The notes under the pieces were generated by a model, which saw only the letters and a list, made by a program, of their open reading frames with translations, made no database searches and was not told the origin of the DNA. From Bdellovibrionales bacterium (GTDB lineage Bacteria; Bdellovibrionota; Bdellovibrionia; Bdellovibrionales; UBA1609), in contig OZ242172.1 in assembly GCA_965205645.1 (NCBI GenBank), positions 576,122-640,121 on the forward strand: a stretch of DNA of 64,000 nt, read 5' to 3'. A program made the translations under genes and the position numbers. Shown piece by piece: positions 1,370 to 41,752 of this stretch. How positions within the stretch are numbered: position 1 is the stretch's first letter; every line of letters starts with the position of its first letter.

Positions 1370-2493
1370 CAATAACGGTCCTTATATTGTATTTGGCATA
1401 TTTTATAATTTTCCCAAGCTTCTTTATAAGTAATATTGGTGGTGTCTTGTATGGAATATACGACATTTTGAAAAGCCGCCATACAAGCATTAAACTCTCT
1501 TTTTTCTCTGTAATATTTGCCAGCAATCATCCACGATTGTATCAGTTGTTGTTGTTTGATTTGTGATTTTTGCAAATAGCTGGAACATAAATTATGTTTG
1601 GGGTAAAGTGTTTTACAAACACGAAAAGATTCAACCGCTCTGTCATATAATCCTTTTCTGTAATCTCTAATCCCTTTAGTATAAGCGAATTGAGCGTTTT
1701 TATAATTAGGTAAGCTATTGATTTGTCTTTTCGCTTGTTCCTTTTCTTTTAACTGAGATAATATTTTAACATCCCGTTCTTTATCTTGTCGTGTAATGAG
1801 TATATCTTTTTTCTCTTCGGCTGATTTGTTTTCAGAATCGCTAAGAAGTAACCAAGCGATGAATACAATCCCTAGTGCTAAAATAATTTTTGATTTCATC
1901 GTTCTTTTTTTACTTGTTTGACTATAGGCGTTTTGTTTTTGTCCTATTTCGCCTGGGAACGACATATGTGGTTGATACGGAGATATCCCACCGCTATTCG
2001 CTAAATCGTGAGGAGAGATTTCCTGTGAATTGTTTTTTTGTACATGTGCTGGTGTGAGATGAATGTTTTCATTTTTATTTTGGAGTGGAATAATTTCTTT
2101 TCCGGCTGGAGCAATGACAGGAATAGGTGGTGGTGCAGGGGCTGTTGTCATTGGTTTTTTGTATTCAAACTGTAGGGTAGAATTTCCACATTGAATCATA
2201 TCTCCATCTTTCAATTTGGAATGGATTTGATGGAAGTTATTGATTTTTAAGGAAGATCTACTACTGGTATCTTTAATAGAATAGCCATCTGGGCCAAAAG
2301 TAATAACGGCTTGTTTGCGAGAGCATTTGTCGTCATCTATTAGGCATATATCGCTTTCTGAGTTACGACCAATAGTGATTTTACCTGCTACTAATTTATA
2401 TACAGCTCCTTTATGAGGACCGTTGTTAATTTTAATACGTGCGGTTGCTAGTGGGATGTGAGCAGGTACTGGCATATTAGAAGAACGATTCAT
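1369..2493 (-). CDS. FHA-domain membrane protein with TPR-like C-terminal region
   Basis: Start preferred at the internal ATG (MNRSSNMPVP), just downstream of the upstream stop at 2498. FHA core ITIGRNSESDICLIDDDKCSRKQAVITF...IKDTSSRSSLKINN, Pro-rich linker, TM segment IILALGIVFIAWLLL, helical repeat-like tail. Confidence 0.6.
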   Translation of the reverse strand: MNRSSNMPVPAHIPLATARIKINNGPHKGAVYKLVAGKITIGRNSESDICLIDDDKCSRKQAVITFGPDGYSIKDTSSRSSLKINNFHQIHSKLKDGDMIQCGNSTLQFEYKKPMTTAPAPPPIPVIAPAGKEIIPLQNKNENIHLTPAHVQKNNSQEISPHDLANSGGISPYQPHMSFPGEIGQKQNAYSQTSKKRTMKSKIILALGIVFIAWLLLSDSENKSAEEKKDILITRQDKERDVKILSQLKEKEQAKRQINSLPNYKNAQFAYTKGIRDYRKGLYDRAVESFRVCKTLYPKHNLCSSYLQKSQIKQQQLIQSWMIAGKYYREKREFNACMAAFQNVVYSIQDTTNITYKEAWENYKICQIQYKDRY

Positions 2494-2497
2494 TTTA

Positions 2498-4144
2498 CTA
2501 TGCCTCTTCTTGTTGTGCTTGGTTAACTGGTATAAAGGAAACCAATGCATAAGACAGGTGATCTTTGCCATAAACACCTTTAGCGGAAAGTTGAAATTCC
2601 ACTCCGCTGAACTCTAAATTATCTGTAGCGATTTCATTTGGATGTTGTGAGATTTTTTCTAATAGTCCGGTGATGTTGAGTTTTAAAGCTTGATCATCAA
2701 TGTCTTCTATTGCACTATTTAAAATTCTTTCAGAACTAATACCGGTTTCTTCTTCAAAATGTGCACTCACTCCATCTATTTTATTTGTATCTAAATTAAT
2801 ACCTAATGTTGGGTATCCAATCATTTCAATCAGGTGGTTCATTTCATTTTGTCGATCGTATTCAATGATGGATTGGTTACTATCCTGAACAGCGGAGATT
2901 CGTGACAAAGCAGAATTAATATTACTAGCTAAATTTTGTAGAGGAGTAAACTGATAGTCTGTTTTTACATCTAATGTGTCATCTTTAAGGGCAGAATCTA
3001 GTTGCTGGTTAATATCCAAAACAGGATATTCAATCATTTTGTATAAAAAGAAAAATAGTAAAACACCTAAAACCGTGGCGATAAAACAAGTTTGCACTAA
3101 CAGACTGAGAACTCTTTTATTGCCATATGCTAGTGCTCCGATGTTGTAAATGACGGCAGCGTAGGCAGCCGCTCTATGTGTATTGGTTTGACTGTTAAAA
3201 AATTGAATAGGTACCATAGCTGCTACGGTATTAGAATCCAGTTTTTTAACAGAGATGGCGTCTTTTTTACGTGCTTCGTTAATGAAAGGTAATTTGGAAT
3301 AAGTGTGTGCTTGTTCAGAAGGGGCTAAGATACGTCCATCCGCGGCGTTAATAATAAATGCTTTAGTCACGCCTGGTCTTCTGAGTGCGTATTCTACACT
3401 GGCAGAAGAGTGGATTTTATTTTTTATGGATTCTCGGTTTTCCTGAGCGAGTATTGTGGCAATCGTCTCTGCGTGGTTCATGCTTTCTTGTTCTACACTG
3501 GAATTTAAAATACGAATCAGTGGTACAGAAGATAAAGCCGTCATCACAACAACAAAGAATACCAAGAATCCGGCAATGACTAATTTTAATTCCAGCCAAG
3601 TAGGAAGTTTGTACACACCGGGTAATACCACTTTATCCATATAATTTTTAAACCAGTTTTTTAAAGTAAGTTTAAGTGCTGGTTCTGCGGGTGAGTGACT
3701 CGCTCCAGTGACAGGAGGGTATCCGTAGGGTGGAAGATGAGGTTGTTGCGGAGTTGGTATTCCTCCGACAGCACCAGTAGCTATTGGGAAAGTGGGTTGA
3801 CCTGGTTGAGGGGCAAGTGATTGTTCTGTAGATGATGATTGTAGACTCAGATTACCAGAATGGCGGATAATATCAAAAGTGCATTGATAAAGGGATATTT
3901 TATCTTGTGGTTTGATTTTACTTTCTCGTACTTTAACTCCGTTAACAAAAGTACCGTTACTGGAATTTAAGTCTTCAATAAAAATCTCATCTTTGGACAC
4001 TTCCATTTGTAGATGTTTTTTTGAAACACCTTGTTCCTGGATAGTAATTTGGCATTCTTCAGCTCGGCCAAGCGTGTATTGACCTTCCTGCAGATGCATT
4101 TCTTGTCCAGCCAGTTTGCCGTTTAAAAATCTAATCGTCCACAT
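2498..4144 (-). CDS. FHA-domain protein with two TM helices and a periplasmic/linker domain
   Basis: N-terminal FHA core YTLGRAEECQITIQEQGVSKKHLQMEV...IEDLNSSNGTFVNG, Pro-rich linker, TM helices LVIAGFLVFFVVVMTALSSV and CFIATVLGVLLFFFLY. Overlaps the upstream gene by 14 nt. Confidence 0.6.
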   Translation of the reverse strand: MWTIRFLNGKLAGQEMHLQEGQYTLGRAEECQITIQEQGVSKKHLQMEVSKDEIFIEDLNSSNGTFVNGVKVRESKIKPQDKISLYQCTFDIIRHSGNLSLQSSSTEQSLAPQPGQPTFPIATGAVGGIPTPQQPHLPPYGYPPVTGASHSPAEPALKLTLKNWFKNYMDKVVLPGVYKLPTWLELKLVIAGFLVFFVVVMTALSSVPLIRILNSSVEQESMNHAETIATILAQENRESIKNKIHSSASVEYALRRPGVTKAFIINAADGRILAPSEQAHTYSKLPFINEARKKDAISVKKLDSNTVAAMVPIQFFNSQTNTHRAAAYAAVIYNIGALAYGNKRVLSLLVQTCFIATVLGVLLFFFLYKMIEYPVLDINQQLDSALKDDTLDVKTDYQFTPLQNLASNINSALSRISAVQDSNQSIIEYDRQNEMNHLIEMIGYPTLGINLDTNKIDGVSAHFEEETGISSERILNSAIEDIDDQALKLNITGLLEKISQHPNEIATDNLEFSGVEFQLSAKGVYGKDHLSYALVSFIPVNQAQQEEA

Positions 4145-4487: not shown

Positions 4488-5410
4488 TATCCTCCTCCAT
4501 AGAAGAATTGAAGGCTGATAGGTGCTAGAACAGCAATAAACACAGCGGGTAGAATGAATATAATCATGGGTAATAGCATTTTTTGTGAAGCTTTAGCGCC
4601 TTGTTCTTCTGCGCGAGTGAATCGTTCATGTCGCATTTGTTCTGATTTTGCTTTAAGAGTTTTGGAGATACTGGCTCCTGTTTCTTCAGAGTCAATAATT
4701 GTCATACAGAAACTGGAGACTTCATCTATATCTAATCGTTTAGCCATATTAGCAAGGGCATCTTTGCGGGAGCTACCTAGTTTAATATCTTTTTGTATCG
4801 TTAGAAATTCAGTCGCGAGAGCAGAGTCAGTGGCTTTTTCCGTAATTCTTTGAATAGAACCAAAAAAGTCCAAACCGGCTTCGGCACTCAGAGCTAGTAA
4901 ATCAATAAAAAAAGGTAAATCTCTAAGGACTTCACTATCTCTTTGTTTTTTTCGACTGGTACAGTACCAGTGTGGAAAATAAAATCCCACTGCACTAACT
5001 ACTATTGCTGCCCATAAAGGAAAGTTGAATTGCAAAGCGAAATTAATAATTAGAAATAAAATAGGGAAAAGCAGTCCCCACAGCAATTGCAGGCCAATAA
5101 ACTCATCGGTATTGATTTCTTTGCTTAGTCCAGCAGTAAGGATTTTATGTTCCACTGATTCACGGTACTTAGCGGACTTAATTCTTTTTACATGTTGTAA
5201 AGTTAAGTTGTGGACTAAAGGCCGGGATAGTTGAATTAATGGCATTTTAGAGGGGCTAGGTTCTTGGCCTTCTGCCCATGCAAGGGATTCTGAGTCAGTG
5301 TTTTTAGTAAACATCACTGTGCAGAACAGGTAAATAGATGTAGCTCCCAAGGCTAGACCGGAAAATAAAAAAATATAATCAAATGGCATATTATTCCTTT
5401 GTGGATTCAT
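4487..5410 (-). CDS. tadC: Type II secretion system F-family / TadC-like pilus assembly membrane protein
   Basis: N-terminal TM, central TM pair, T2SSF-type cytoplasmic domain (DLPFFIDLLALSAEAGLDFFGSIQRI...IQKDIKLGSSRKDALANMAKR) and C-terminal TM. Confidence 0.7.
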   Translation of the reverse strand: MNPQRNNMPFDYIFLFSGLALGATSIYLFCTVMFTKNTDSESLAWAEGQEPSPSKMPLIQLSRPLVHNLTLQHVKRIKSAKYRESVEHKILTAGLSKEINTDEFIGLQLLWGLLFPILFLIINFALQFNFPLWAAIVVSAVGFYFPHWYCTSRKKQRDSEVLRDLPFFIDLLALSAEAGLDFFGSIQRITEKATDSALATEFLTIQKDIKLGSSRKDALANMAKRLDIDEVSSFCMTIIDSEETGASISKTLKAKSEQMRHERFTRAEEQGAKASQKMLLPMIIFILPAVFIAVLAPISLQFFYGGG

Positions 5411-7410: not shown

Positions 7411-8169
7411 ATGAAAATATTAATTGGTAAGCATAATTTGCGACTTAGTAAAATTATTTTTTTATTAGGTATTTTATGGGGTTGTTCATCTCCGCAATCT
7501 TCTGTTGCGCCGGAAGAGACAGAGCAAGAAGATTCTGGTGTGTTTGGAGTTCAGACGATATGTCATCGGGATGAAGGTTGCACAGCTTCTTGTCACGAAT
7601 TATTTGTCGGAGATTCGGATCATGCAAACAAATGTATGGATCAGACGGTAGGGGATGTGAGGGCATTAAAAGTAGTATTGGCAGCGATGGAAAAAGGTTC
7701 TTGGTCTTCTATTAAACCGGATCAATTAGAGAGGGCTTTGAATTTTGATTCAGATCTTTGGCTTCCTTATGTGGACATTAACAAACCATGGAGCAGGGCT
7801 TTTTTAAAGCGGGTGGCGGAAGAACCTAAGATAGCGGAGTTACTAGACGATAATGAGGTTTTGCGGCGAGCTTTTATGTCTTTGGTGTTATTAGGTTCTC
7901 AGGACGATCAGATTTTAGGTGGAATGCGGGAATATGTGGATACAGATGAGAATCAGACTTTTCTTGGAGTGGCGGCATTAAATAAAAACGATAAAGCATT
8001 TGAAGAGGGGCATCGTTTGTTATCTGATGTTTGTCAGAAGAGGCAGTTATGCATTCAACGTGTGTATTGTGCCATTTACGAAGATATTGTGTTTACACGT
8101 TTGAACGATTTAAGTTTATCAGATGAAGTCACAGATAGTGGTCGTGTCTCAGTTGCTATTTGCAATTAA
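7411..8169 (+). CDS. Cys-rich secreted lipoprotein, paralog family member 1 of 8 (short form)
   Basis: Lipobox-like LLGILWG|C. CHRDEGCTASCHELF (C-x5-C-x3-C) motif and C-terminal CQKRQLCIQRVYC motif, both shared with the other members. Confidence 0.6.
   Translation: MKILIGKHNLRLSKIIFLLGILWGCSSPQSSVAPEETEQEDSGVFGVQTICHRDEGCTASCHELFVGDSDHANKCMDQTVGDVRALKVVLAAMEKGSWSSIKPDQLERALNFDSDLWLPYVDINKPWSRAFLKRVAEEPKIAELLDDNEVLRRAFMSLVLLGSQDDQILGGMREYVDTDENQTFLGVAALNKNDKAFEEGHRLLSDVCQKRQLCIQRVYCAIYEDIVFTRLNDLSLSDEVTDSGRVSVAICN
8147..8169 (+). repeat. Left copy of the 23-bp direct repeat bracketing the inserted cassette (also the 3' end of family member 1)
   Basis: tctcagttgctatttgcaattaa versus tctcagtcgctatttgcaattaa at 9553-9575 (one mismatch). 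Confidence 0.85.
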
Positions 8170-8368
8170 TGGGGACAAATTTCTAAAAAAATTAAACACA
8201 ACCAAAAATAGTGGTAAGTTGCTTGAGATAATAAGTTTTTATATTATAATTTTGCTATGGAAATCTGCAAGCAGTCATAGAATTACTGCTAAAGATGTTG
8301 CTTTTCTTTAAGTTTGTGCTTGAATGAATTTAAATTCATGACGATAATAAAAGAAGGAGTTTATTACT

Positions 8369-8578
8369 ATGAATCGTCTAAAAGAATTTCAAACATCCGA
8401 TTTGAAATATATATCAAAAAAGAGAAGAGAAGAGATTGAACAGGTGTTTAATACTTTAGGCTTGATGAATCAGAGCAATTTACCAAATTATTCTTATCCA
8501 TCTGATGGCTATAATATGCCATTTAAACAGTTTTCTGTATTAGAGAATAAAAAGATCATTTTCAGTAGTTCCAGTTAG
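8369..8578 (+). CDS. Small hypothetical protein (first gene of the inserted cassette)
   Basis: 69-aa ORF preceded by aaggag about 9 nt upstream. Its stop lies 3 nt before the start of the protease gene. No motif recognised. Confidence 0.4.
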   Translation: MNRLKEFQTSDLKYISKKRREEIEQVFNTLGLMNQSNLPNYSYPSDGYNMPFKQFSVLENKKIIFSSSS

Positions 8579-8581
8579 ATT

Positions 8582-9490
8582 ATGCCCAGTTGGAATGACA
8601 TTTTAAAAGAAATACAAAAAGAAATACAAAAAGATTCTGACAAAAATCCTTTTCATACTGTCAGACAAAAATATATTGATAAGCTTTTTAAAAAACGTCA
8701 GAGAAATGTTATTACTTACTATTCTGGCTGGCTTCAAAAATCTAATATAAAAGGTATTGAAATAAACGATAATGATAAAAATGCTTTTATGGCAGTTATT
8801 TATCAATTAGATCGATCGAAAGGATTAGATTTAATACTTCATACTCCTGGCGGTGAAGTAGCTGCAACAGAATCCTTAATTGATTATTTGAGAGAAATGT
8901 TTGATTTAAACATTGAAGTGTTTGTTCCTCAGATTGCTATGTCAGCGGGAACAGTGGTTGCTTGTGCTTCCAAACTGATACATATGGGAAAACAATCTAA
9001 TTTAGGTCCCATTGACCCTCAAATTGGAGGGCTGCCAGCTAGTGCTATATTGGATGAATTTGAAAAAGCGGCGCGAGAGATTAAAGAGCAACCAGAAAAA
9101 ATTCCATTATGGCAAGTTATTGTCAGTAAATATCATCCCAGTCTTATATTATCTTGTGAAAACGCCATTGAATGGTCGAAGGAAATAGCAAAGAAATACT
9201 TAGAGACAGGGATGTTTTCTAAGGATGCAGATATAGATATTTCTAAAATAGTGAATCATCTTTCGGATCACAAAAAAATGAAAACTCATTTTAGACATAT
9301 TGGCCTTAAGGAAGCTCAAAAGATTGGCTTAAAGATTACTCCTCTTGAAGAAGATAATGAACTTCAAGATATAGTTTTAACAATTCATCATTCCTATATG
9401 CATACATTGAATAGCACTCCTGCCATTAAAATTGTAGAAAATCATATTGGAGTTGGCCAGCTCCAGAGTTTACCAGTAGCTTCTAAATAA
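8582..9490 (+). CDS. SDH-family (Clp/SppA-fold) serine protease
   Basis: LDLILHTPGGEVAATESL and IAMSAGTVVACASKLIHMGKQSNLGPIDPQIGG match the PF01972 serine dehydrogenase proteinase / ClpP-fold signature, with the Ser in MSAG. Confidence 0.75.
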   Translation: MPSWNDILKEIQKEIQKDSDKNPFHTVRQKYIDKLFKKRQRNVITYYSGWLQKSNIKGIEINDNDKNAFMAVIYQLDRSKGLDLILHTPGGEVAATESLIDYLREMFDLNIEVFVPQIAMSAGTVVACASKLIHMGKQSNLGPIDPQIGGLPASAILDEFEKAAREIKEQPEKIPLWQVIVSKYHPSLILSCENAIEWSKEIAKKYLETGMFSKDADIDISKIVNHLSDHKKMKTHFRHIGLKEAQKIGLKITPLEEDNELQDIVLTIHHSYMHTLNSTPAIKIVENHIGVGQLQSLPVASK

Positions 9491-9510
9491 AATTGAAATC
9501 TTCTCCAGAT

Positions 9511-9543
9511 GCGGGAGTGGTGAAGTCACACCCCTTTGGGAGG
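9511..9543 (+). repeat. A-repeat, partial (head end only)
   Basis: gcgggagtggtgaagtcacacccctttgggagg corresponds to the CGCGGCGAAGTCAC-C5TTG5 end of the family. Confidence 0.6.
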
Positions 9544-9552
9544 CGAGTTATA

Positions 9553-9575
9553 TCTCAGTCGCTATTTGCAATTAA
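9553..9575 (+). repeat. Right copy of the 23-bp direct repeat bracketing the inserted cassette
   Basis: tctcagtcgctatttgcaattaa. It could also encode VAICN-stop like the left copy. Confidence 0.85.
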
Positions 9576-9580
9576 CGTAG

Positions 9581-9631
9581 TTTCTCAGGTAAAAATTTCT
9601 GTTCAAAGATTCAGACATATGTTTTGCCACC
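9581..9631 (+). repeat. Solo half of a B-repeat
   Basis: tttctcaggtaaaaatttctgttcaaagattcagacatatgttttgccacc matches the TCAAAAG-TCAGACATGCGTTTTG arm of the B family. Confidence 0.6.
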
Positions 9632-9688
9632 TTGCCATTGGGTCGGCGAGGACATTTATTTGTTAAAATGATTTACTAGTTTCTTCAG

Positions 9689-9788
9689 TTAAAAATCCAC
9701 CTCAAAAGTTCAGACATGCGTTTTGTTGTAAAGCGGACTTGCAGTCGCTTTGCAACAAAGCCGAACTCGTTTTGAGATGGATTTTTAA
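9689..9788. repeat. B-repeat hairpin element (100 bp)
   Basis: ttaaaaatccacctcaaaagttcagacatgcgttttgttgtaaagcggacttgcagtcgctttgcaacaaagccgaactcgttttgagatggatttttaa. The outer 19 nt are perfectly self-complementary. Confidence 0.85.
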
Positions 9789-9797
9789 TTAAAGAAA

Positions 9798-9875
9798 TTT
9801 ACATGATTTGTAAATATAATATGCGTGCAAGGAATCGCGGTGAAGTCACTCCCCCTTGGGGGGGCTAAGGTCTGG
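9798..9875 (+). repeat. A-repeat copy (short-core variant)
   Basis: tttacatgatttgtaaatataatatgcgtgcaaggaatcgcggtgaagtcactcccccttgggggggctaaggtctgg. Confidence 0.8.
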
Positions 9876-9999
9876 ATTTTTATTTCGATTTCAGATTTTT
9901 TAATTCCATGACCGATACTTAAGTATAGTGAAGTATGCACAATAGGTCTTTGCTGACATAATTTATAAATGAGTGAGGTAAATACCAAATAGGTTGTCT

Positions 10000-11091
10000 A
10001 TGAAGTTTAAAATATTTGTTTTATTTATTTGTTTGGTAGTGGCTTATTTATCTGCTTGTGGTCTTTACAACAGTAGCACGGATGATGTGTTTAGTTATAG
10101 CAATTCTAGTCGCTCGGGAGATGCGGGTGACGGGGATATTCCGCGCTTGTCTGAACGTTCAAAATCACGTCCAGATTTAGACGATCAACCTTGTGAAGAT
10201 CGAGAGGCTTGTCGCATTGTGTGTAAGGCTATGTATGATGATGTAGATAGTGAAGAAGAGTGTGTAGAATTAACTTATGGCAAGGTGGAAGCTTTAGAGG
10301 AAGTGTATTTAGCTTTAAGAAATGGCGAAACTGACGACACTGACGAAAATGCCGATCCCAATTTAAATGACATAGATTTTGATGATTTAGAAGAATATTT
10401 AGATATTGGATGGGATGGTTGGCTAGATGTTGTGATTCCTAAACATGTAAGGGATAAAGATTATGATAAAATATTTAATACTCTAAAATGGATTGCAGAT
10501 AATGGTGGAGCATCGGATGCACTGATGAATGTCCGGCGAGACACTAGGTACGAGCACCATGGTATTTTAAAAGGATTATTTTTAAATTATTGTCGTCCTG
10601 ATTCTGCTGGCGGTTGTGGTGCAGATAGTAGTGTAACTACAGTAACTACTTCTGCAGATGTAGCTGTTGGTCACAGTATTGAGTTTGATTATAACGCTGG
10701 TGAATTAAAGTGTTCTATATCGTCGCCGTCACAGTCTGAAATAATAATTGCATCTATTACAGAAGATCGTAAGAAAGAATTATTGATTGCGTTGAGTGCA
10801 TTAGGATCTAACTATCTAAGTAGTATTCAAAGTTTTTTTAATTATGCAGCAAATCGTAGGTATGATAATGCTCTTGAGTTAGCTCATCAGCTATTGGAAG
10901 TTGCGTGTGAAACGGATTCTGGTACTGGGTCGGTTAAATTTGAGCAATGTATTCGTGGATTTTATTGTTGGTTAAATGCTCACCATTCTGATAGTGACAG
11001 TCAAATCCTGCCAGCCGATTTTGAAGAAATAGAAATGAGTTTAAATAGTATTAATTTATCCTGTACTTGCGCTAATTTTACAGACATATAG
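10000..11091 (+). CDS. Cys-rich acidic secreted lipoprotein, paralog family member 2
   Basis: Canonical lipobox LSA|C. CEDREACRIVCKAMY, LEEYLDIGWDGW, LKWIADNG and C-terminal CIRGFYCW motifs. Confidence 0.65.
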   Translation: MKFKIFVLFICLVVAYLSACGLYNSSTDDVFSYSNSSRSGDAGDGDIPRLSERSKSRPDLDDQPCEDREACRIVCKAMYDDVDSEEECVELTYGKVEALEEVYLALRNGETDDTDENADPNLNDIDFDDLEEYLDIGWDGWLDVVIPKHVRDKDYDKIFNTLKWIADNGGASDALMNVRRDTRYEHHGILKGLFLNYCRPDSAGGCGADSSVTTVTTSADVAVGHSIEFDYNAGELKCSISSPSQSEIIIASITEDRKKELLIALSALGSNYLSSIQSFFNYAANRRYDNALELAHQLLEVACETDSGTGSVKFEQCIRGFYCWLNAHHSDSDSQILPADFEEIEMSLNSINLSCTCANFTDI

Positions 11092-11121: not shown

Positions 11122-12294
11122 ATGGAAAAGGTAAAAAAGATGGAACAACAATTAAACAGTGATTTTAAAAAAATTAGACAGCCAACTACTTGGTTTTTTA
11201 TGGCTATGATTTTTATTTTTACTTTGCTAATAGGTATGGAGTTATTTGGTTGTTCGGGTCGTCCTGGTGCTTCTGGGGTATTTGATAATAATCAGAATCA
11301 ATTTTCTTCAGATGATAGTACGGAAAATTCCGGCATATTTGAAAGTGCTGATGGGCGATTAAATTCAGATGATTTGTGCTATAACAATGAATCGTGTGTG
11401 GAATTATGTAACTCTATGCTGAAAGATTTTTCCGATCAAAAGAGATGTTATTCTTATCAAGAAGTGGATGTGCAGGCGTTTAGGGATACTTATAACAATC
11501 TGGCTTTAGGTCAAAATTTAGGTGATGTAGACTCGGATGAAATGGAATCTTTTTTGGATTTTGGTGTGGAGATATGGCGGGACGCCATTACAGGTTTTGA
11601 GCGAGATTGGCAAAGTGGTTGTGAAGTAGGTGCAGATGAACGGCTAAGTGATTGCCAGGGTGATGATTATTATTTGCAACGTGGTTATACCCGGCAAGGT
11701 GCAGCAGCGGCGCTTAGTTGGATTGCCCGTAGTGATTGGCTCGCAAAACTATTGCTAGATTATGATAATGATTTTGTCGTTATAGACGCACTGGTTGCTG
11801 TTTTAATAGATCCTGATCTTCCTAAAAAATATATAAATTTAGATTCGCCTAATACAGAAGTGATTGAATCAATTAAAGTATTTCCTGATGAAGAGCAGTG
11901 TCGGTCATATGTTAATCCAACATCAGATAATGATCCAGCTGAACCTTTAACAGAAAATTTAGCATTTAATATTCCCTGTTTAGATCAGAATTTAAATTAT
12001 ATATTATTAGCTCGGAAATATGATAATGAAGAATCTATTTTGTTAGGTGATAGGTATTGTAGTTATCTGGGTGTAGATTGTACTTTAGAAACAGCTGAGA
12101 TTTTGTTTCAAGCCGCTCAAAATGAAGGCAGAGTATATTCTTTTATTTGTGATTTACTTAGAGATGCTGGACTGATCAGTAATTGTGGTAATGATGAATG
12201 CACAGCTTGTCAAAGTTTTCAGAGAATGCTTGGTAATCCTGTTTCTGCGTGTGAAGCTGATCCTATTACTGATCAGCAACCTTGTCTTCCTTAG
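11122..12294 (+). CDS. Cys-rich acidic secreted lipoprotein, paralog family member 3
   Basis: Lipobox LFG|C. CYNNESCVELCNSML, MESFLDFGVEIW and LSWIARSDW motifs, many further Cys. Start uncertain (several in-frame ATGs). Confidence 0.65.
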   Translation: MEKVKKMEQQLNSDFKKIRQPTTWFFMAMIFIFTLLIGMELFGCSGRPGASGVFDNNQNQFSSDDSTENSGIFESADGRLNSDDLCYNNESCVELCNSMLKDFSDQKRCYSYQEVDVQAFRDTYNNLALGQNLGDVDSDEMESFLDFGVEIWRDAITGFERDWQSGCEVGADERLSDCQGDDYYLQRGYTRQGAAAALSWIARSDWLAKLLLDYDNDFVVIDALVAVLIDPDLPKKYINLDSPNTEVIESIKVFPDEEQCRSYVNPTSDNDPAEPLTENLAFNIPCLDQNLNYILLARKYDNEESILLGDRYCSYLGVDCTLETAEILFQAAQNEGRVYSFICDLLRDAGLISNCGNDECTACQSFQRMLGNPVSACEADPITDQQPCLP

Positions 12295-12295
12295 T

Positions 12296-12332
12296 AAAAA
12301 ACCTTGTTTAAAAGTTCAGACATATGTTTTAC
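12296..12332 (+). repeat. Solo half of a B-repeat directly after the stop of family member 3
   Basis: aaaaaccttgtttaaaagttcagacatatgttttac. Confidence 0.55.
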
Positions 12333-12368
12333 TTCAGACATTTGTAAAAATGATTACAAAATTGTAAG

Positions 12369-12486
12369 TTTCTCTATTTAAAAACTCTACTCAAAACGAG
12401 TTCGGCTTTGGTGCAGAGCGACTGTAAGTCTGCTTTGCAACAAAACGCATGTCTGAGTTTTTGAGTAGAGTTTTTAAATAGAGAAA
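12369..12486. repeat. B-repeat hairpin element (118 bp)
   Basis: tttctctatttaaaaactctactcaaaa-cgagttcggctttggtgcagagcgactgtaagtctgctttgcaacaaaacgcatgtctgagt-ttttgagtagagtttttaaatagagaaa. The 28-nt outer arms are perfectly complementary. Confidence 0.9.
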
Positions 12487-12505: not shown

Positions 12506-12574
12506 AGTCGTGACAGGTGTGCAGCGGAGTTGCGGCGAAGTCACTCCCCCTTGGGGGGCGGGGCTTAGGTCTGG
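12506..12574 (+). repeat. A-repeat copy (short-core variant)
   Basis: agtcgtgacaggtgtgcagcggagttgcggcgaagtcactcccccttggggggcggggcttaggtctgg. Shares the trailing ggct(a/t)aggtctgg with the copy at 9798. Confidence 0.8.
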
Positions 12575-12770: not shown

Positions 12771-13913
12771 ATGCGTGGAATTAAAGAAGTATGGAATTTC
12801 ATTTGTGGTGCAGATAAAAAACTTATTCAAAAAGTTTTTGGCATATTAGTCAGTGGTTTTATTTTAACGGCGATTGTGTCAGCGGGCTTTATGTCTTGCA
12901 CACCGAATTTTGATGTGGATTCTGGCAGTTCCAGGGATAGCAATAACAATAGTGATGACGACGATGATGACGAAGATGATGGAGAAAAGTGCCTAGGTCA
13001 CGAAACTTGTGAAAAAATTTGTGAAAAAATTTATTATGCAGGCAGAGATCAAGTGGATTGCCAGGAAGAAGGCAGGAACAAAGTTGGTCGTTTGGATGAA
13101 ATATATGATCTTTTAAAAACAGGCGATTCTAGAGATTTAGAGAAAATTTTCCCAGATGAAGATGGGGTAGAACTAGATGATTTGGAAGATTATTTAAATA
13201 TTGGTATTTCTGGTGTGGAGGATTTGATTGATGAGAATAGTAAGGGTGATGATTATTGGGATGACATAAATAAGTTGGGATCTGTTTTAAAATGGATTAT
13301 TGATGAAGAAGATGTAGCAAATGTGTTAAATGGGTTAGATGATAATGGAGGACATCGTATTTTAGAAGAGCTTCTTGATAGAATGGAGGTTACTAAAGAC
13401 GGCGATTGTATTAGTAAGAATAGCCTTGCTTGTGGTACTAGTCCAACTATTAATCACGTAAATCATTATGACTATGATAGTAATAGTGGCCAAATTGAAA
13501 TTTGTACTGATAATAGAGATCCAACATTAAAAGGATCTGTTGATCTAGTTAATGGCGCTGATATACAATTATATGATGCTTTATCTTGTGTATATAATGA
13601 CTTAAGGGCTAATGGAAAAGATCAAAATGTGTTTTCTTATGCTAGTGTAAAAAATAATAGCATTATTTTTAATATGGCTTATAATTTATTAAATGATATT
13701 TGTGAAAATGTAGATGATCGCGATCCTGATCATCAAAGAGCTTGTAGAAAAGCTTTACTTTGTTGGACAGGTGTTCAAAGTGAAGAAGGTGATGATCCAA
13801 ATGAAAATTTTTTTAGGGAGTATGTGAATGATCATAGAAATGATTTAGAAAAAGATAGCGGTGGTTCTGACTATAATCAATGTCAACCAAGACATTTTGC
13901 CGATTTCTTTTAA
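12771..13913 (+). CDS. Cys-rich acidic secreted lipoprotein, paralog family member 4
   Basis: FMS|C lipobox-like site, poly-Asp/Glu linker, CLGHETCEKICEKIY, LEDYLNIGISG, LKWIIDEEDV, CRKALLCW, C-terminal NQCQPRHFADFF. Closest paralog of member 5. Confidence 0.7.
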   Translation: MRGIKEVWNFICGADKKLIQKVFGILVSGFILTAIVSAGFMSCTPNFDVDSGSSRDSNNNSDDDDDDEDDGEKCLGHETCEKICEKIYYAGRDQVDCQEEGRNKVGRLDEIYDLLKTGDSRDLEKIFPDEDGVELDDLEDYLNIGISGVEDLIDENSKGDDYWDDINKLGSVLKWIIDEEDVANVLNGLDDNGGHRILEELLDRMEVTKDGDCISKNSLACGTSPTINHVNHYDYDSNSGQIEICTDNRDPTLKGSVDLVNGADIQLYDALSCVYNDLRANGKDQNVFSYASVKNNSIIFNMAYNLLNDICENVDDRDPDHQRACRKALLCWTGVQSEEGDDPNENFFREYVNDHRNDLEKDSGGSDYNQCQPRHFADFF

Positions 13914-14360
13914 CCAGTTTTTTTCATTTCCTTTCAGTGCATCTTAAATTAGCAAAAAAATCCATGGAATATTATTATGAAAAATTTAATTCCACAAATT
14001 GTACTAGAATTAGTTAGCCTTATTAATAAAAGGTTTAGTAGTAGTTTGACAGAAAAGGAAAAAGAAAAGGAAAAAGAAAAGCTCCAATTTTTGATTGAAC
14101 AAGTTGAGCAAAAATATAAAGATTTAAAAAATTTCATTCTTTATGTGGCTGTCGGGCAGTTTATTTTAACCATTGTTGCTATGAGTGCTATTGTAACTAT
14201 GGTTGTAAATAAGATTTAATGTGAAACAATATCCAATTCTTTCATAAAATTGATCTTTATAACAATATAGCCGTTTACTCCGCTGCTATTCCAAACTTTT
14301 GTATCTATAGTTTTTTATATTTTCTAATGATCTTAATATGTTTTATACAATGCATTGGCA

Positions 14361-14512
14361 CAGTCGTGACATGCGTGCAAGGATTCACAGCGGCCGGCGA
14401 CTCGCCGCAGACATTTACTTGTAAACTTAATTAGCAAAGTTGTGACATGCGTGCAAAGAACTCGCGGCGAAAATGTCACCGGCAACTCGCCGGCCACTTT
14501 GAAGGGGGTGGA
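14361..14512 (+). repeat. Two tandem A-repeat copies (variant with a CCGGCGACTCGCCGG-type hairpin)
   Basis: cagtcgtgacatgcgtgcaaggattcacagcggccggcgactcgccg... then tttacttgtaaac...gtgacatgcgtgcaaagaactcgcggcgaaaatgtcaccggcaactcgccggccactttgaagggggtgg. Confidence 0.75.
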
Positions 14513-15128
14513 ATGGATTTTGCTAGAAGAGCTTGCAGGATTGAAAAGTGTATTCATTCACAAGCAAGAGGGCCTTCAGGAAGAGGATTTTAAATTCTTT
14601 TTTTCTAAGATTCCTGCTGAATCCAGAAAAATTATGCTAAATTATGGTTTGAAGATAATAGATACTCAGGATTCAAAGGTACGAAAAGCTTATAAAGGTC
14701 ATCAATTAAGAGGTCGTGGTGTTATAAAGCTATTATCTGAGATATGGAGTATAAAAAGACCTGCTCCGTCTAAAGTAAAGGAAATTTTTCACGATTTTGC
14801 CGATATACTGAAAAAGCTGAAAGGAAAACAAAGAAAGGACACAAGTCTAAGGATACTGGAATACTTAATTGATAATACGGGCTTAGATTTAAGGACATGG
14901 AAGAAAGCAGAGAAGTTGATTATAGAAGAGGGAATTTTAACCAGAGGAGGTGTTATGGACATAAGAGAACATATTAAAGAAAAAGGCCGTTGGGAAGGAA
15001 GACAGGAACGAAACAAGGAAGTTATTTTAAATATGCTAAAAGAGAAGGCAGATATTTCCTTTATTTCCAAAATTACAGGTTTGTCTGAGAAAGAAATAAA
15101 GAAACTAAAAAACGGTTTTTCATTATAA
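14442..15128 (+). pseudogene. Rpn/YhgA-like recombination-promoting nuclease (putative transposase), C-terminal fragment only
   Basis: The C-terminus GRWEGRQERNKEVILNMLKEKADISFISKITGLSEKEIKKLKN resembles the tail characteristic of Rpn-family proteins. No PD-(D/E)XK core is visible, and the first ~24 codons are read from an A-repeat copy. Confidence 0.4.
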
Positions 15129-15440: not shown

Positions 15441-15497
15441 CAGCTCATTCAGTGAAAATCACTCAATCTTATGACATACATCAAAAGGGATGTGGAG

Positions 15498-16658
15498 ATG
15501 ACTCAAAAGAAAAATTCTGATGCATTAATAAAGCCAGTTTTTAGTCATTTAACATTTGTCATCACATTGTTTCTACAATCAACCTTTATTAGCTTGTTAT
15601 TAGCACACCCTACATTCGCCCGTTCATCCATGACAGACCGGCCGATCATTGCTGTGGCAACCAATATCGATAGAGAGAGAAAAGGTGTGAATAATGAAAA
15701 AAAATGTATGGGTCACAAAACTTGTGAGATGTGTGAAAAAATTTATGGTGCGGACAATGATAAAATAGCTTGTCAAAAAGAGAGCCTTAACAAAGTAAAT
15801 CATTTGAATAAAATATATGCTTTTTTAAAAGATGGAGATTATGAGGATTGGGATAAATTTTTCCTGGATGAAGATGAAGTGAATCTAAAATATCTAAAAG
15901 ATTACTTAAATATTGGCGATTCCGGTATAGAAAATCTTATTAAGAATCATTGGAGTGAAGATCAACTGATAAAATTCTTACAATTGATTATTGATAAAAT
16001 ACAGGTAGCGGAAATTTTATATAACTTAGCTGGAGGAAAATATCTTTTAAAAGAAATACTTCTAGCAATAAGAAATAAAACCGATCAATGTATTGGAAAT
16101 AACACTCTTAATGATTGTAATGATTCACCACACGGACATTATGGCAGAACTGGTTATGGTGTAGATTATAGTTTAGACGATGACACCGTTAATATTTGTA
16201 CTGAGGATAAAAACCCCAGTTGGTCATATACATTGGATCATCTTTTTCCATTTCCCAAAGAATTCATTTGGAAGAAAAGGAGTTTTACTTTTTTAGATGA
16301 TGATAACACGTCATTATATGACGCTTTATCTTGTTTCTCATTAATAGATAAAAGTAGCTTTTCAATTACACATTACAATGTATTTTCTTATGCTAGTATG
16401 AAAGAAAATGATTTTATTTTTAATATGGCTTATGATTTATTAAATGATACTTGTGAAGATTTTGATACTGATGAGAACGATTATAAACAACTCTGCAAAA
16501 AAGTTTCGTTTTGTTGGATTCATGAAGTAGATGAGAAACAAGGAGAGAGGAGTTTTAAATATCTTGTTGAGTTTGACTATGATGATGGTTTAGAAGGGGA
16601 TAGCGGTGGTTCTAACTATAATCAATGTGCACCAAGACATTTTGCCGAATTCTTTTAA
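15498..16658 (+). CDS. Chimeric paralog family member 5: PstS-derived leader/signal peptide fused to the Cys-rich family domain
   Basis: N-terminus MTQKKNSDAL...LLLAHPTFARSSMTDRPIIAVA is homologous at DNA and protein level to the PstS N-terminus MTQKKRSNLL...LLLATSTLAYSSMTDMPLVAAS. The rest carries CMGHKTCEMCEKIY, LKDYLNIGDSG, CKKVSFCW and NQCAPRHFAEFF. Confidence 0.75.
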   Translation: MTQKKNSDALIKPVFSHLTFVITLFLQSTFISLLLAHPTFARSSMTDRPIIAVATNIDRERKGVNNEKKCMGHKTCEMCEKIYGADNDKIACQKESLNKVNHLNKIYAFLKDGDYEDWDKFFLDEDEVNLKYLKDYLNIGDSGIENLIKNHWSEDQLIKFLQLIIDKIQVAEILYNLAGGKYLLKEILLAIRNKTDQCIGNNTLNDCNDSPHGHYGRTGYGVDYSLDDDTVNICTEDKNPSWSYTLDHLFPFPKEFIWKKRSFTFLDDDNTSLYDALSCFSLIDKSSFSITHYNVFSYASMKENDFIFNMAYDLLNDTCEDFDTDENDYKQLCKKVSFCWIHEVDEKQGERSFKYLVEFDYDDGLEGDSGGSNYNQCAPRHFAEFF

Positions 16659-25844: not shown

Positions 25845-27581
25845 TTAAGAACATTCTAATAAGCGATAAAAATCTGATTGGATTTTTTTTAGCTCTTTGT
25901 CAGATCGGCCGCCAAAACGAAAAGTAAACATGCTCTGTGTATTGGAAAGACGTGCCAGACCCCAAGCTTTCCCCGGAAAACATACCCGCACACCATCTAC
26001 TAAACATAACTGCGCTTCAGAATATTTCGCATAATGATCTTTGACTCGATTCAAAAGTTTGTGTGCCCGTGCTATGTCATTAACCGCTATACGTATCTCA
26101 TTCGTATGAACTCCAATGTTAGTAGGCAGTATTTTATCTAATAACTCTTCTACACGATACACACCACTCTCACATAAAATCCGTAACAAACGTAAAGTTG
26201 CATATACACCATCATCTAAAAAATAACCTTCATCACAAAAAAAGTAATGTCCGCTAAACTCACCACCGAATATCGCCCCTAATGCCAATGTTCGCCGACG
26301 AATTAAACTATGCCCCGACCCCCCAAGGGGGAGTGGTTTCGCCGCGGCTTCATTTACGTTATTGTCACGTCTTTGCTTCTCAAGGGGGAGTGGTTTCGCC
26401 GCGGCTTCATTTACGTTATTGTCACTATTTTGCAAATCATGTTTACCAAGTGCCAACGCAGATTTCTGCGTTTCTAAAAAATCAAAGAACCATGGGGCGC
26501 ATTTTACATCTGCGACAATAACACCGGCATCCTTATTCCGTTTCCATATATCAGAAATAAAAATCGCCATTAGCTCATCTCCATATAGCACCCTACCGGA
26601 TTCACTGATCACGACTAAACGATCCCCATCCCCATCCAAAGCCACTCCAAACTTTGCTCCACAGCTTCTTACCTTCTGACGTAAATCATTTAAATTTTCA
26701 TCTAAGGAAGGATCTGGATGATGATTCGGAAAACGTCCGTCCGGATCTGCATATAACCATTCAGCATTTAAACCTAACTCCTTAAAAACTGCTTGTGCCA
26801 CCGGCCCCGCTGCTCCATTTCCGCAATCCACTACAATGCTTCCCTGATCCTTCCACATTTTCCCTAACTGAGAAAATTTCTTTTTCATTAACTGAACATA
26901 AAAAGATATCACTGTATTATCTAAACTTTTGACTGACTTCTTCTCACGATTGATATTTGTTAAATGTCCACTGTCCGATACACAATGCTTGTCAGATAAA
27001 GATGTGGATTTTGTCTTTGCTAACAAAGAATCATCCGTAGATAATTGAAGGATAATATCTTTTAACTCTTGCAACTTCTCATCACATAAAGTTTCTTCAT
27101 ATACAGAAAATTTAAAGCCGTTAAAGTCAGCTGGGTTATGACTTGCCGTCACCATCACAGAAGCTGCGGTATCAGGAAAAAAATGGGAAGCAACAAAACA
27201 AACCGGAGTGGATACTAAACCTAAAAATTGTATCGGTGCTTGACCGGCAGTGAGTCCCTCTATTAAAGCATTTGTTACGTCTGGACTGCTTAAGCGACTG
27301 TCATGTCCCACTGCTACAAAGCTTAAAGACATAGGTGTGTCTAACAGTTTATCTTTTTTACTACTATGAAATGCCTTTTTGTCTTTTGTGATACTACGTT
27401 CACTGTTATTCCTAATGTTTGTGCGATATGAGATAAACTTAGCAAAAGCTATCCCCAAGTATCGCACGAAATCTAAATCAAAATCTTTTCCATATATTCC
27501 ACGAATATCATTTTTTCTAAAAATATCCGGATTCCATTTCATGTGCTTCAACCTAATATCCATCTCATACTCATTATGCAC
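25845..27581 (-). CDS. Phosphomannomutase/phosphoglucomutase (carries 1.5 in-frame A-repeat copies)
   Basis: Active-site TASHNPADFNGFKF, Mg site ALDGDGDRLVV, GHSLIRR sugar loop. The insertion ALGKHDLQNSDNNVNEAAAKPLPLEKQRRDNNVNEAAAKPLPLGG lies directly before GHS. Confidence 0.85.
   Translation of the reverse strand: MHNEYEMDIRLKHMKWNPDIFRKNDIRGIYGKDFDLDFVRYLGIAFAKFISYRTNIRNNSERSITKDKKAFHSSKKDKLLDTPMSLSFVAVGHDSRLSSPDVTNALIEGLTAGQAPIQFLGLVSTPVCFVASHFFPDTAASVMVTASHNPADFNGFKFSVYEETLCDEKLQELKDIILQLSTDDSLLAKTKSTSLSDKHCVSDSGHLTNINREKKSVKSLDNTVISFYVQLMKKKFSQLGKMWKDQGSIVVDCGNGAAGPVAQAVFKELGLNAEWLYADPDGRFPNHHPDPSLDENLNDLRQKVRSCGAKFGVALDGDGDRLVVISESGRVLYGDELMAIFISDIWKRNKDAGVIVADVKCAPWFFDFLETQKSALALGKHDLQNSDNNVNEAAAKPLPLEKQRRDNNVNEAAAKPLPLGGSGHSLIRRRTLALGAIFGGEFSGHYFFCDEGYFLDDGVYATLRLLRILCESGVYRVEELLDKILPTNIGVHTNEIRIAVNDIARAHKLLNRVKDHYAKYSEAQLCLVDGVRVCFPGKAWGLARLSNTQSMFTFRFGGRSDKELKKIQSDFYRLLECS
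26319..26447 (-). repeat. A-repeat, one truncated plus one full long-core copy, in frame in the phosphomannomutase gene
   Basis: ccccccaagggggagtggtttcgccgcggcttcatttacgttattgtcac, a 12-nt joint, then caagggggagtggtttcgccgcggcttcatttacgttattgtcactattttgcaaatcatgtttacc. Confidence 0.9.
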
Positions 27582-27602: not shown

Positions 27603-27708
27603 CTCCCAAAGAGAGTGACTTTCGCCGTCCGCGAGTTGCGACCCCCCAAGGGGGAGTGGTTTCGCCGCGATTCCTTCGTACTCATGTCACTATCTTGTAA
27701 ATGATATG
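27603..27708 (-). repeat. Two adjacent A-repeat copies (one partial), intergenic
   Basis: ctcccaaagagagtgactttcgccgtccgcgagttgcg then accccccaagggggagtggtttcgccgcgattccttcgtactcatgtcactatcttgtaaatgatatg. Confidence 0.8.
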
Positions 27709-34944: not shown

Positions 34945-35452
34945 TTAAAACCGGCCCTTTTAAAAAATATATCCTGTTTTTTTTTCGATTGTCGTGGCCA
35001 CGCACGTAGAGGATACAATTCCTCAATATCAGCTAAAATAGCAATTTTTAAGTCTTTTCTATACACTTACTATAAAATTTTGGATGTTTTCTATATAGTT
35101 GATATAAATTTTAGGGCTTTTCTATATATTACTGCATATAGTACTTCAATAATATAAAACAAGTAATAATGAGGTTTTAAAAAATATGAATAACCCGAGT
35201 AATCCTTTTAATCCAAGTTCAATAGTAACACCTACATTATTTGCTGGAAGAAGTCAGCAAGTGGTGAATGTTTTAAAAAAACTATCCAATGTGAGGGAAG
35301 GAATCTAAAATCCTTAGAAAGAGAATAAACAAAATTTTTTATTTTTTGCTTATACAAGATTTTCTGTCCTGTATTATCCGCTCCCCTTCGGTCGCAGATA
35401 CTATAGGCCGCTTCTTCGCTTCGAATTCTACCTTTTGTTTTTTAAATAAAAG

Positions 35453-35526
35453 TGATGGCGGTAGGACTCGAACCTACGACCTACGGCTTAGAAGGCCGTT
35501 GCTCTATCCAGCTGAGCTACGCCACC
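35453..35526 (-). tRNA. tRNA-Arg (anticodon UCU)
   Basis: Minus strand GGTGGCGTAGCTCAGCTGGATAGAGCAACGGCCTTCTAAGCCGTAGGTCGTAGGTTCGAGTCCTACCGCCATCA folds as a cloverleaf. 7-bp acceptor stem, anticodon loop CUUCUAA, TPsiC loop GGTTCGAGTCC, no encoded CCA. Confidence 0.9.
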
Positions 35527-37721: not shown

Positions 37722-37826
37722 CGCCCCCCAAGGGGGGATGACTTCGCCGCGATTCCTCTGCACGCCTGTTACAACTTTGCCGATTATGTTTACAAATAAA
37801 AGCCTGTGGTAACTTGCTGCCGCCAC
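37722..37826 (-). repeat. A-repeat copy plus adjacent variant tail, intergenic
   Basis: cgccccccaaggggggatgacttcgccgcgattcctctgcacgcctgttacaactttgccgattatgtttacaaataaaagcctgtggtaacttgctgccgccac. Confidence 0.75.
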
Positions 37827-41686: not shown

Positions 41687-41752
41687 CCCCAAGGGGGAGT
41701 GACTTCGCCGCGGCTGCATTTACGTTATTGTCACAGCTTTGCATATTTTGTG
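41685..41752 (-). repeat. A-repeat copy (long-core form), intergenic, flanked by two half B-repeats
   Basis: ccccccaagggggagtgacttcgccgcggctgcatttacgttattgtcacagctttgcatattttgtg. Confidence 0.85.

Follow-up and report, generated by a model that had tools for sequence, protein, structure and literature searches.

A compact two-gene cassette lies behind an intact lipoprotein gene near the start of a 64,000-nt stretch of DNA from a Bdellovibrionales bacterium (contig OZ242172.1, positions 576,122 to 640,121; hereafter the window, numbered from its first nucleotide). The first open reading frame (ORF) of the cassette codes for a protein of 69 amino acids (aa) and the second for a 302-aa serine protease with a ClpP fold, and the cassette is bracketed by a 23-nt direct repeat of the end of the lipoprotein gene. 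The features of the locus, by window coordinates and strand, are the following.

7411-8169, + strand: target lipoprotein gene (family member 1), an intact ORF of 252 aa whose translation ends ...RVSVAICN-stop
8147-8169, + strand: tctcagtTgctatttgcaattaa, copy 1 of the direct repeat, comprising the last 7 codons (...SVAICN) and the stop codon of the lipoprotein gene; left junction
8170-9552, + strand: inserted segment of 1383 nt, missing from syntenic relatives
8223-8250, + strand: sigma-70-like promoter, TTGAGA-16-TATAAT, an 11/12 match and the top-scoring promoter-like site of the region
8325-8338, no strand assigned: perfect palindrome of 14 nt, tgaatttaaattca, downstream of the promoter and upstream of the ribosome-binding site
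8369-8578, + strand: ORF of the small partner gene, 69 aa
8582-9490, + strand: ORF of the SDH-type ClpP-fold serine protease, 302 aa, PF01972
9511-9543, + strand: partial A-repeat, GGYGAAGTCAC..CCCCTTGGGG, a dispersed host repeat lying between the protease stop and repeat copy 2
9553-9575, + strand: tctcagtCgctatttgcaattaa, copy 2 of the direct repeat, a non-coding remnant of the gene end (ISVAICN-stop); right junction, followed by native downstream DNA

The two copies of the repeat are identical at 22 of 23 nt, and the one T/C difference is synonymous (Val) in the frame of the lipoprotein gene. They are the sole pair of matches to the 23-mer in the window at up to 3 mismatches, and 100 shuffles gave none; a chance origin of the repeat is ruled out. 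The initial annotation had described the duplicated gene 3′ end, the leader with its palindrome, the 69-aa ORF, the coupled PF01972 protease with its MSAG and GPIDPQ signatures and the partial A-repeat, and all of these are present as it read them.

Orthologues of the lipoprotein gene that are 73-74% identical by protein search (P0122 and P0123) were found on contigs that keep the proC-divIVA-member 1-member 2 synteny and lack the cassette (L084 and L085, from a sponge metagenome, and L086). In each of the two relatives, the end of the gene, ...atctca(g/a)tt(t)ctatttg(c/t)aatta(a/g), directly joins intergenic sequence, so that the empty site for which the initial annotation had proposed a search, with the member 1 stop running straight into the sequence after 9575, exists twice. 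The DNA after the member 1 stop in L084 starts with an element resembling a miniature inverted-repeat transposable element (MITE), which is also found after window position 9575 (alignment A5). The empty sites in two syntenic relatives indicate a real insertion, in which the native gene body adjoins the left repeat copy and native downstream DNA adjoins the right one. We are highly confident that 8170-9552 is a foreign insertion that left the end of its target gene intact. The right copy keeps the ATC (Ile) codon of both orthologues, and the left copy has GTC; because the ancestral codon is found in the right copy, the true duplication may be 25-26 nt long.

The GC content of the insert (32.2%) falls in the lowest 6% of same-size windows (37.0 ± 2.9%). 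A leader of about 118 nt follows the promoter, and the promoter block cTTGAGATAA...TATTAT is conserved in three related cassettes (L001, L003 and L090). The palindrome tgaatttaaattca was considered as an operator and rejected, since it is not conserved among the related cassettes. The protease ORF starts 3 nt after the small-ORF stop. These two ORFs are the only ones in the cassette, and neither is a recombinase by Pfam profile search. No terminal inverted repeats or attC-like structure were found at the cassette ends, and searches for known RNA families in the leader and flanks returned only sub-threshold chance matches. The sole tRNA gene of the window, at 35452-35526, is far from the cassette.

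The protease matches PF01972 with 77.7 bits (E = 9.8e-22; gathering cut-off, 31.3 bits). It aligns with the NCBIfam equivalog model NF047768 over the full length (residues 23-283 to positions 19-257 of 260), but with a score of 94.2 bits versus a cut-off of 250; judged by these profile scores, the protein is a member of PF01972 in a subfamily separate from the NF047768 equivalog. Its match to the ClpP family (PF00574) reaches only 24 bits, well below that to PF01972. The top PHROG is 11747 (2.5e-95), listed with function unknown, and no function or structure for this subfamily was found in the resources searched. Among 23 aligned homologues from many phyla, which are 53-80% identical, Ser121 (MSAG), Asp145 (GPIDPQ), His87 (HTPGG) and His236, 239, 269, 270 and 274 are invariant, and the catalytic residues of the protease appear to be intact. 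The Asp of GPIDPQ presumably stands where ClpP has the His of its IHQP motif. The AlphaFold2 (AF2) model of the protease has a mean predicted local distance difference test (pLDDT) value of 90.5. Its nearest folds in the PDB are ClpP, SppA and 1510-N, at 13-21% identity and query-normalised TM-scores of 0.36-0.42, and no solved structure of a close relative is among the PDB matches. The census of neighbouring genes revealed no conserved ClpX- or ClpA-like neighbour.

The 69-aa protein is hydrophilic and Lys-rich. Its N-terminus is basic, residues 17-29 are predicted to form a single helix, and the protein has the motif PFKQFSVL and a tail rich in Ser (IIFSSSS). Its AF2 model, computed for the protein alone, is of low confidence (pLDDT 64) and shows the one helix in an otherwise disordered chain. 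No match was found in Pfam (E ≤ 0.01), NCBIfam, PADLOC or PHROG. In neither the small protein nor the protease was a signal peptide or membrane segment evident by eye, no prediction tool having been used. The ratio of nonsynonymous to synonymous substitution rates (dN/dS) ranges from 0.13 to 0.36 in the small ORF and from 0.08 to 0.13 in the protease: both ORFs are real genes under purifying selection.

The same small ORF stands immediately upstream of three close homologues of the protease (83-86% identical; L001-L003, on contigs of 1.6-2.0 Mb). Their sites are unrelated to one another: one region is rich in insertion sequences (IS), another contains an integrase and AbiEi, and the third consists of housekeeping genes. 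Scanning GTDB with one genome for each species yielded at least 599 candidate stretches, at least 571 of them encoding a relative of the protease. The 80 scan loci kept for study span Bdellovibrionales, Nitrospinae/Nitrospina, Nitrospirae, Bacteroidota, Proteobacteria, Planctomycetota, Chloroflexota, Firmicutes, Actinomycetota and one Thermoplasmatales archaeon. Counts of pairing refer to 83 fetched loci plus the window, 84 in all. An ORF of about 55-110 aa ends -29 to +16 nt from the protease start in at least 78 of the 84, which answers in the affirmative the question, raised in the initial annotation, of whether the small partner accompanies PF01972 proteases elsewhere. The small ORFs are highly divergent, and jackhmmer joins at least 64 of them into one superfamily through three overlapping groups of 26, 27 and 20 members. 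Members of the superfamily share a layout in which a basic N-terminus is followed by a helix (E-I/Y-x-x-V/I-F...), the motif [FL]x[KR][FLC][ST][LIV][YL] and a Ser/Thr-rich tail.

Only two matches to the small-ORF hidden Markov models (HMMs) lie away from a protease start in these loci. One is in L035, where a small-family ORF (1421-1642) is split from the protease by a same-strand ORF of 754 aa (1704-3968) that may be a secondary insertion into the pair. The other is in L074, the sole locus with the small ORF (4987-5169) downstream of the protease, overlapping its stop. In three further loci the frame of the protease is interrupted despite a full-length tblastn match (L069, 4001-4420; L007, 387-485; L060, 1442-2152), through either decay of the copy or errors in the assembly of metagenome-derived genomes.

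Relatives of the protease are also present on 259 IMG/VR contigs. In an independent IMG/VR set of 45 testable loci, 19 were HMM-positive and about 39 had an abutting, similar-looking ORF of 60-105 aa. An exhaustive profile search at E ≤ 1e-30 gave 707 protease clusters at 50% identity. Two of the hits listed by that search (P0244 and P0250) are gene calls that fuse a small-protein-like N-terminus (..EEIQRMFEEMGLGTEEERRRF.. or ..IEKFEKMFKEIDIQ..GWIFSGSSSN..) in frame to the protease. No conserved third gene was found: among 150 nearest-neighbour genes no family is represented more than three times, so that the module lacks a conserved third component. That the small ORF and the protease form a conserved pairing is beyond reasonable doubt. 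The pair is a self-contained, mobile two-gene module carried by prophages, in keeping with the compact mobile module that the initial annotation had seen in it.

Seven phage records contain the protease. In five Porphyromonas gingivalis prophages the pair, with an HMM-positive upstream ORF, lies beside HicA/HicB and between head and neck genes. A Mu-like Shewanella phage carries it between the genes for late regulator C and for lysis, and Gordonia phage BeeGee carries it behind the tail genes. Four plasmids have full-length copies. Most of the diverse IMG/VR matches lie within a few kb of a contig end, which fits cargo at a prophage edge.

L090 (6463-7472) has a 79%-identical cassette about 9.5 kb from the empty site of L086, on the same contig and in the same gene array. 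This cassette comes directly after AbiEi and a 59-aa N-terminal fragment of AbiEii, and adjoins an IS3 OrfA-like (HTH_Tnp_1) gene; the AbiE toxin gene was apparently cut short where the cassette inserted. AbiEi is also found 1.6 kb downstream of the pair in L002, and in L037 the target is a restriction-modification gene of the Eco57I/MmeI type. Other neighbours include type I restriction-modification subunits, BrxL, integrases and IS elements or transposases.

The initial annotation had likened the geometry in the window to a site-specific insertion that regenerates the end of its target gene. As the empty sites show, the insertion and the intact gene end stand; site-specificity is not supported, given repeats that vary or are absent at other loci and a cassette with no recombinase. 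DNA homology between the window and the cassettes of L001-L004, L069 and L090 runs only from about 8196-8368 to about 9474-9494 (window coordinates) and takes in the promoter with its leader, both ORFs and a few nucleotides past the stop. No end motif was found to be shared beyond close relatives. Exact repeats of at least 20 nt bracket the pair in 7 of 69 loci, versus 21 of 1737 control placements, and imperfect repeats within 500 nt do so in 8 of 76 loci, versus 15 of 619 controls; in about 90% of the related loci the pair sits at unrelated positions with no detectable flanking repeat.

Where flanking repeats are present, their sequence and length (23-90 nt) vary by locus, as does the type of target, which may be a gene 3′ end, a gene 5′ end or a MITE-like or intergenic segment. 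The repeat in L040 covers 26-33 nt at the 3′ end of an XRE-family gene. In L037 it is 25 nt of the 3′ end of the restriction-modification gene, and four copies of that end separate different inserts. These gene-end copies (..EEEFAHILGTFPIVPQE..) lie at 3218-3284, 3496-3687, 5052-5130 and 7520-7750, within 8.9 kb, and one of the inserts is the small-ORF and protease pair; the locus looks like a serial accretion of cassettes at one gene end. In L074 the 5′ end of a UvrD-like helicase gene is duplicated over 90 nt at 99% identity on either side of the pair (3625-3714 and 5181-5270), and the downstream copy supplies the helicase with a new start codon and a new N-terminus. The repeats in L033, L041, L051 and L080 are 45 to more than 100 nt long and consist of MITE-like or intergenic DNA.

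At three loci (L040, L037 and L074) the sequence of the element-side copy carries on as a diverged homologue of the end of the target gene (e.g. ...EVAFLRGLVGKQ-stop versus ...EVTFLRGLVGKK-stop). Such a diverged homologue does not fit target-site duplication; homology carried along with the element does. The insertion is best explained, from the structure of the junctions, by recombination without sequence specificity rather than by a dedicated site-specific recombinase. DNA carrying a piece of the neighbouring or a homologous gene from a previous host would have entered at the lipoprotein stop by a single crossover or by homology-assisted integration, and in doing so would have duplicated at least 23 nt of the gene end.

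Like elements that use attachment (att) sites at the ends of tRNA or other genes, the cassette is bracketed by a direct repeat of the gene end, leaves the gene intact and has an empty site in relatives. Unlike integrative elements and integron cassettes, it lacks an integrase, a core conserved across insertions, an attC-like inverted repeat and a fixed repeat length. It also differs from an IS or a MITE in having no terminal inverted repeats and a repeat length (23-90 nt) that is not fixed. An att-type or transposase-type insertion catalysed in trans, which would make the cassette a non-autonomous mobile element, is consistent with the clean bracketing and the regenerated gene end, and with the enrichment of flanking repeats around the pair in other genomes. 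This explanation is nevertheless unlikely: repeats are missing from about 90% of the loci and, where present, vary from locus to locus in sequence and length, the element has neither terminal inverted repeats nor a common end motif beyond close relatives, and the element-side copies in L040, L037 and L074 are diverged homologues. That the repeat is the leftover 3′ end of a tandem member 1 paralogue whose body was replaced by the cassette is scarcely credible, for although paralogous lipoprotein genes form an array at this locus, the ends of the others are different (...NFTDI, ...QPCLP and ...HFADFF) and both syntenic relatives have a single member 1 followed directly by member 2.

The small protein is most likely the cognate binding partner of the protease, because of the fused gene calls, the disorder of the small protein and precedents in the fold clan. 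Among these precedents, the 1510-N/NfeD (STOPP) protease cleaves its operon partner, stomatin. SppA binds its own C-termini in its active sites (titles of PDB entries 3viv and 4kwb). The pair could well be a protease with its cognate substrate or inhibitor, forming a module of the conflict type, i.e. one akin to toxin-antitoxin (TA) or abortive-infection (Abi) systems. In such a module, the cassette promoter would drive expression of the small protein and, through translational coupling, of a cytoplasmic SDH-type protease. The small partner would bind the protease as a detachable, propeptide-like inhibitor, as a substrate or as both, with its conserved C-terminal strand and Ser/Thr-rich tail docking at the active site. 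The protease would then stay latent until its labile partner was lost or displaced, for example upon phage infection or loss of the element. The direction of control, any toxicity and any anti-phage effect are likewise proposed, and we hold the direction with less confidence than the general reading.

The PF01972/NF047768 family, named SDH family Clp-fold serine proteinase (formerly DUF114), shares with the cassette protease the ClpP/crotonase fold, the MSAG Ser, the GPIDPQ Asp and conserved C-terminal His residues; unlike NF047768, the subfamily described here is defined by an obligatory small upstream partner. NfeD/1510-N and SppA belong to one fold clan with the cassette protease and rank with its nearest PDB matches (3viv, 4kwb and 3rst), but they are membrane-associated Ser-Lys housekeeping enzymes with unrelated partners.

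As in type II TA systems (HicAB) and AbiE (type IV), a small upstream gene is tightly coupled to a larger enzyme gene under a promoter of its own, in the cassette across a spacer of 3 nt. The pair further resembles TA operons in its patchy, horizontally mobile distribution on prophages, plasmids and islands, in its position beside other TA systems, and in having a faster-evolving, largely disordered small partner. It departs from type II TA systems in that the small protein lacks a DNA-binding domain and the putative effector is a ClpP-fold protease, a class to which, as far as we know, none of the characterised TA toxins belongs.

Pepco/Trypco, EACC1 and bacterial gasdermin are defence modules made of a protease and a small latent effector, in which trypsin- or caspase-like proteases are fused to sensors and the small proteins form pores (bioRxiv 10.1101/2025.11.14.688446). 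Like Pepco and EACC1, the cassette links a protease gene to a small non-enzymatic protein with a conserved C-terminal region, and control by site-specific proteolysis would fit. Unlike them, it has a ClpP-fold protease with no sensor domain, and its small protein is hydrophilic and has no Pfam match.

The pair might instead be a phage morphogenetic or regulatory remnant: a head-maturation, scaffold-processing or prophage regulatory protease with a scaffold- or repressor-like substrate, kept in bacteria as decaying cargo that plays no part in conflict. Pointing in this direction are low-scoring matches to ClpP-related head-maturation proteases (NF045542, 1.2e-07; phrog_53, 4e-07) and the presence of the pair in prophages and on the 259 IMG/VR contigs. 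The NF045542 score, however, is 31.8 against a cut-off of 120, and the top PHROG is a separate family of unknown function. The inspected phages hold the pair in accessory slots and not between portal and capsid genes, and the window and most of the 83 genome loci have no phage structural genes nearby. Strong purifying selection and a sequence identity of 50-60% across phyla also speak against decay, and we regard a phage remnant as distinctly unlikely.

Another possibility is that the small ORF encodes a precursor peptide (a signal, a bacteriocin or a product akin to ribosomally synthesized and post-translationally modified peptides) and that the protease is its dedicated maturation enzyme. 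The small ORF does adjoin the protease, and its conserved region followed by a variable Ser/Thr-rich tail recalls a leader and a core. Yet no modification enzyme, exporter or immunity gene is conserved nearby, inspection by eye, with no dedicated tool, gave no signal peptide or membrane segment, the protein is hydrophilic and Lys-rich, and fused forms with the protease exist; a maturation role is very improbable.

Several points weigh against a conflict module and against the way in which we propose that it spreads. The immediate neighbours of the pair are mainly ordinary or housekeeping genes, with a modest defence or mobile flavour, and some IMG/VR matches may be host flank rather than phage cargo. 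PADLOC-DB v2.0.0 returned no family at E ≤ 1 for either protein, so that the comparison with a defence database suggested in the initial annotation gave no support, and with no PADLOC model for either protein the case for a defence role is one of context only. No DNA-binding antitoxin domain (ribbon-helix-helix, helix-turn-helix or other) was recognised in the small protein by Pfam, NCBIfam or its model. The interaction between the two proteins is a proposal, and the fused calls P0244 and P0250, on which it draws, could be artefacts of sequencing, gene calling or genetic code instead of true fusions. The small-ORF HMMs were built from the loci on which they were first tested, and in the independent viral loci only 19 of 45 were positive. 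As to the route of insertion, the single-crossover model comes from the junctions of a few loci and does not account for the change of target between lineages, and about 90% of the loci have no repeat. With these points counted, the TA, Abi or anti-phage function proposed in the initial annotation is plausible and has gained contextual support. Its statement that it knew of no described system with this composition agrees with our searches of the full-text literature, of PADLOC and, for the small ORF, of Pfam, none of which produced a description of such a pair.

The surroundings of the cassette contain further repeats and paralogous genes, listed here by window coordinates unless a locus is named.

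9578-9803, no strand assigned: native downstream intergenic region, with a partial and then a full copy (9680-9803) of the MITE-like element with inverted ends
9578-9626, 9680-9803, 12283-12331 and 12363-12486, and in L084 6765-6890 and 7105-7215: copies of the MITE-like element
9511-9543, 9831-9863, 12526-12558, 26322-26343 (-), 27645-27666 (-), 37727-37748 (-) and 41688-41709 (-): copies of the A-repeat
7411-8169, 9994-11091, 11122-12294, 12771-13913 and 15471-16658: genes of the lipoprotein array

The A-repeat (..gtgacaNNgtgcaNNggaatcgcGGCGAAGTCACTCCCCCTTGGGGGG..) consists of two short hairpins and is intergenic, with 7 copies on both strands of the 64 kb versus 0.01 expected. As one partial copy lies inside the repeat-bounded insert, that copy came with the cassette or after it. 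A longer duplication of 45-57 nt, first suggested by the 10-mer tgaagtcaca upstream of both copies of the direct repeat, was discarded, the 10-mer falling within the dispersed A-repeat; the shared 10-mer is more likely a coincidence or a later event. The MITE-like element is about 124 nt long, with inverted ends of 28-34 nt (tttcttcagttaaaaatccacctcaaaa...), and occurs in both orientations between the paralogous lipoprotein genes. The segment 7411-16658, after proC and divIVA, is an array of diverged Cys-rich paralogous genes for lipoproteins or secreted proteins with no Pfam match; the array is kept in relatives, and its content varies. A 228-aa ORF at 14442-15128, flanked by inverted and direct repeats (14343-14503), has no Pfam or PADLOC match, and its C-terminus (..ISKITGLSEKEIKKLK..) recalls Rpn/YhgA-like recombination-promoting nucleases by eye only.

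Taken together, function and spread can be joined in one tentative proposal, which we put forward as a possibility. The pair would represent a new protease-based class of TA or Abi systems in which the small protein is both latency factor and sensor, and its loss, displacement or cleavage would free the protease to act on host or phage proteins. The module would spread with no recombinase of its own, by means of a carried gene fragment and a single crossover, which would explain the variable and partly diverged direct repeats.

If the pair is a working conflict module, it would add a class of ClpP-fold, SDH-type protease to the TA and anti-phage repertoire, of which no characterised example was found in the resources searched. 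At 1.2 kb, with its own promoter and no accessory genes, it is easy to test. The junctions suggest how small cargo modules that lack a recombinase move between genomes while the target gene is kept intact. The pair, if it works as such a conflict module, would also give a function to a widespread family of hypothetical proteins, one that comprises 707 clusters, at least 571 genomic stretches, 259 viral contigs and PHROG 11747.

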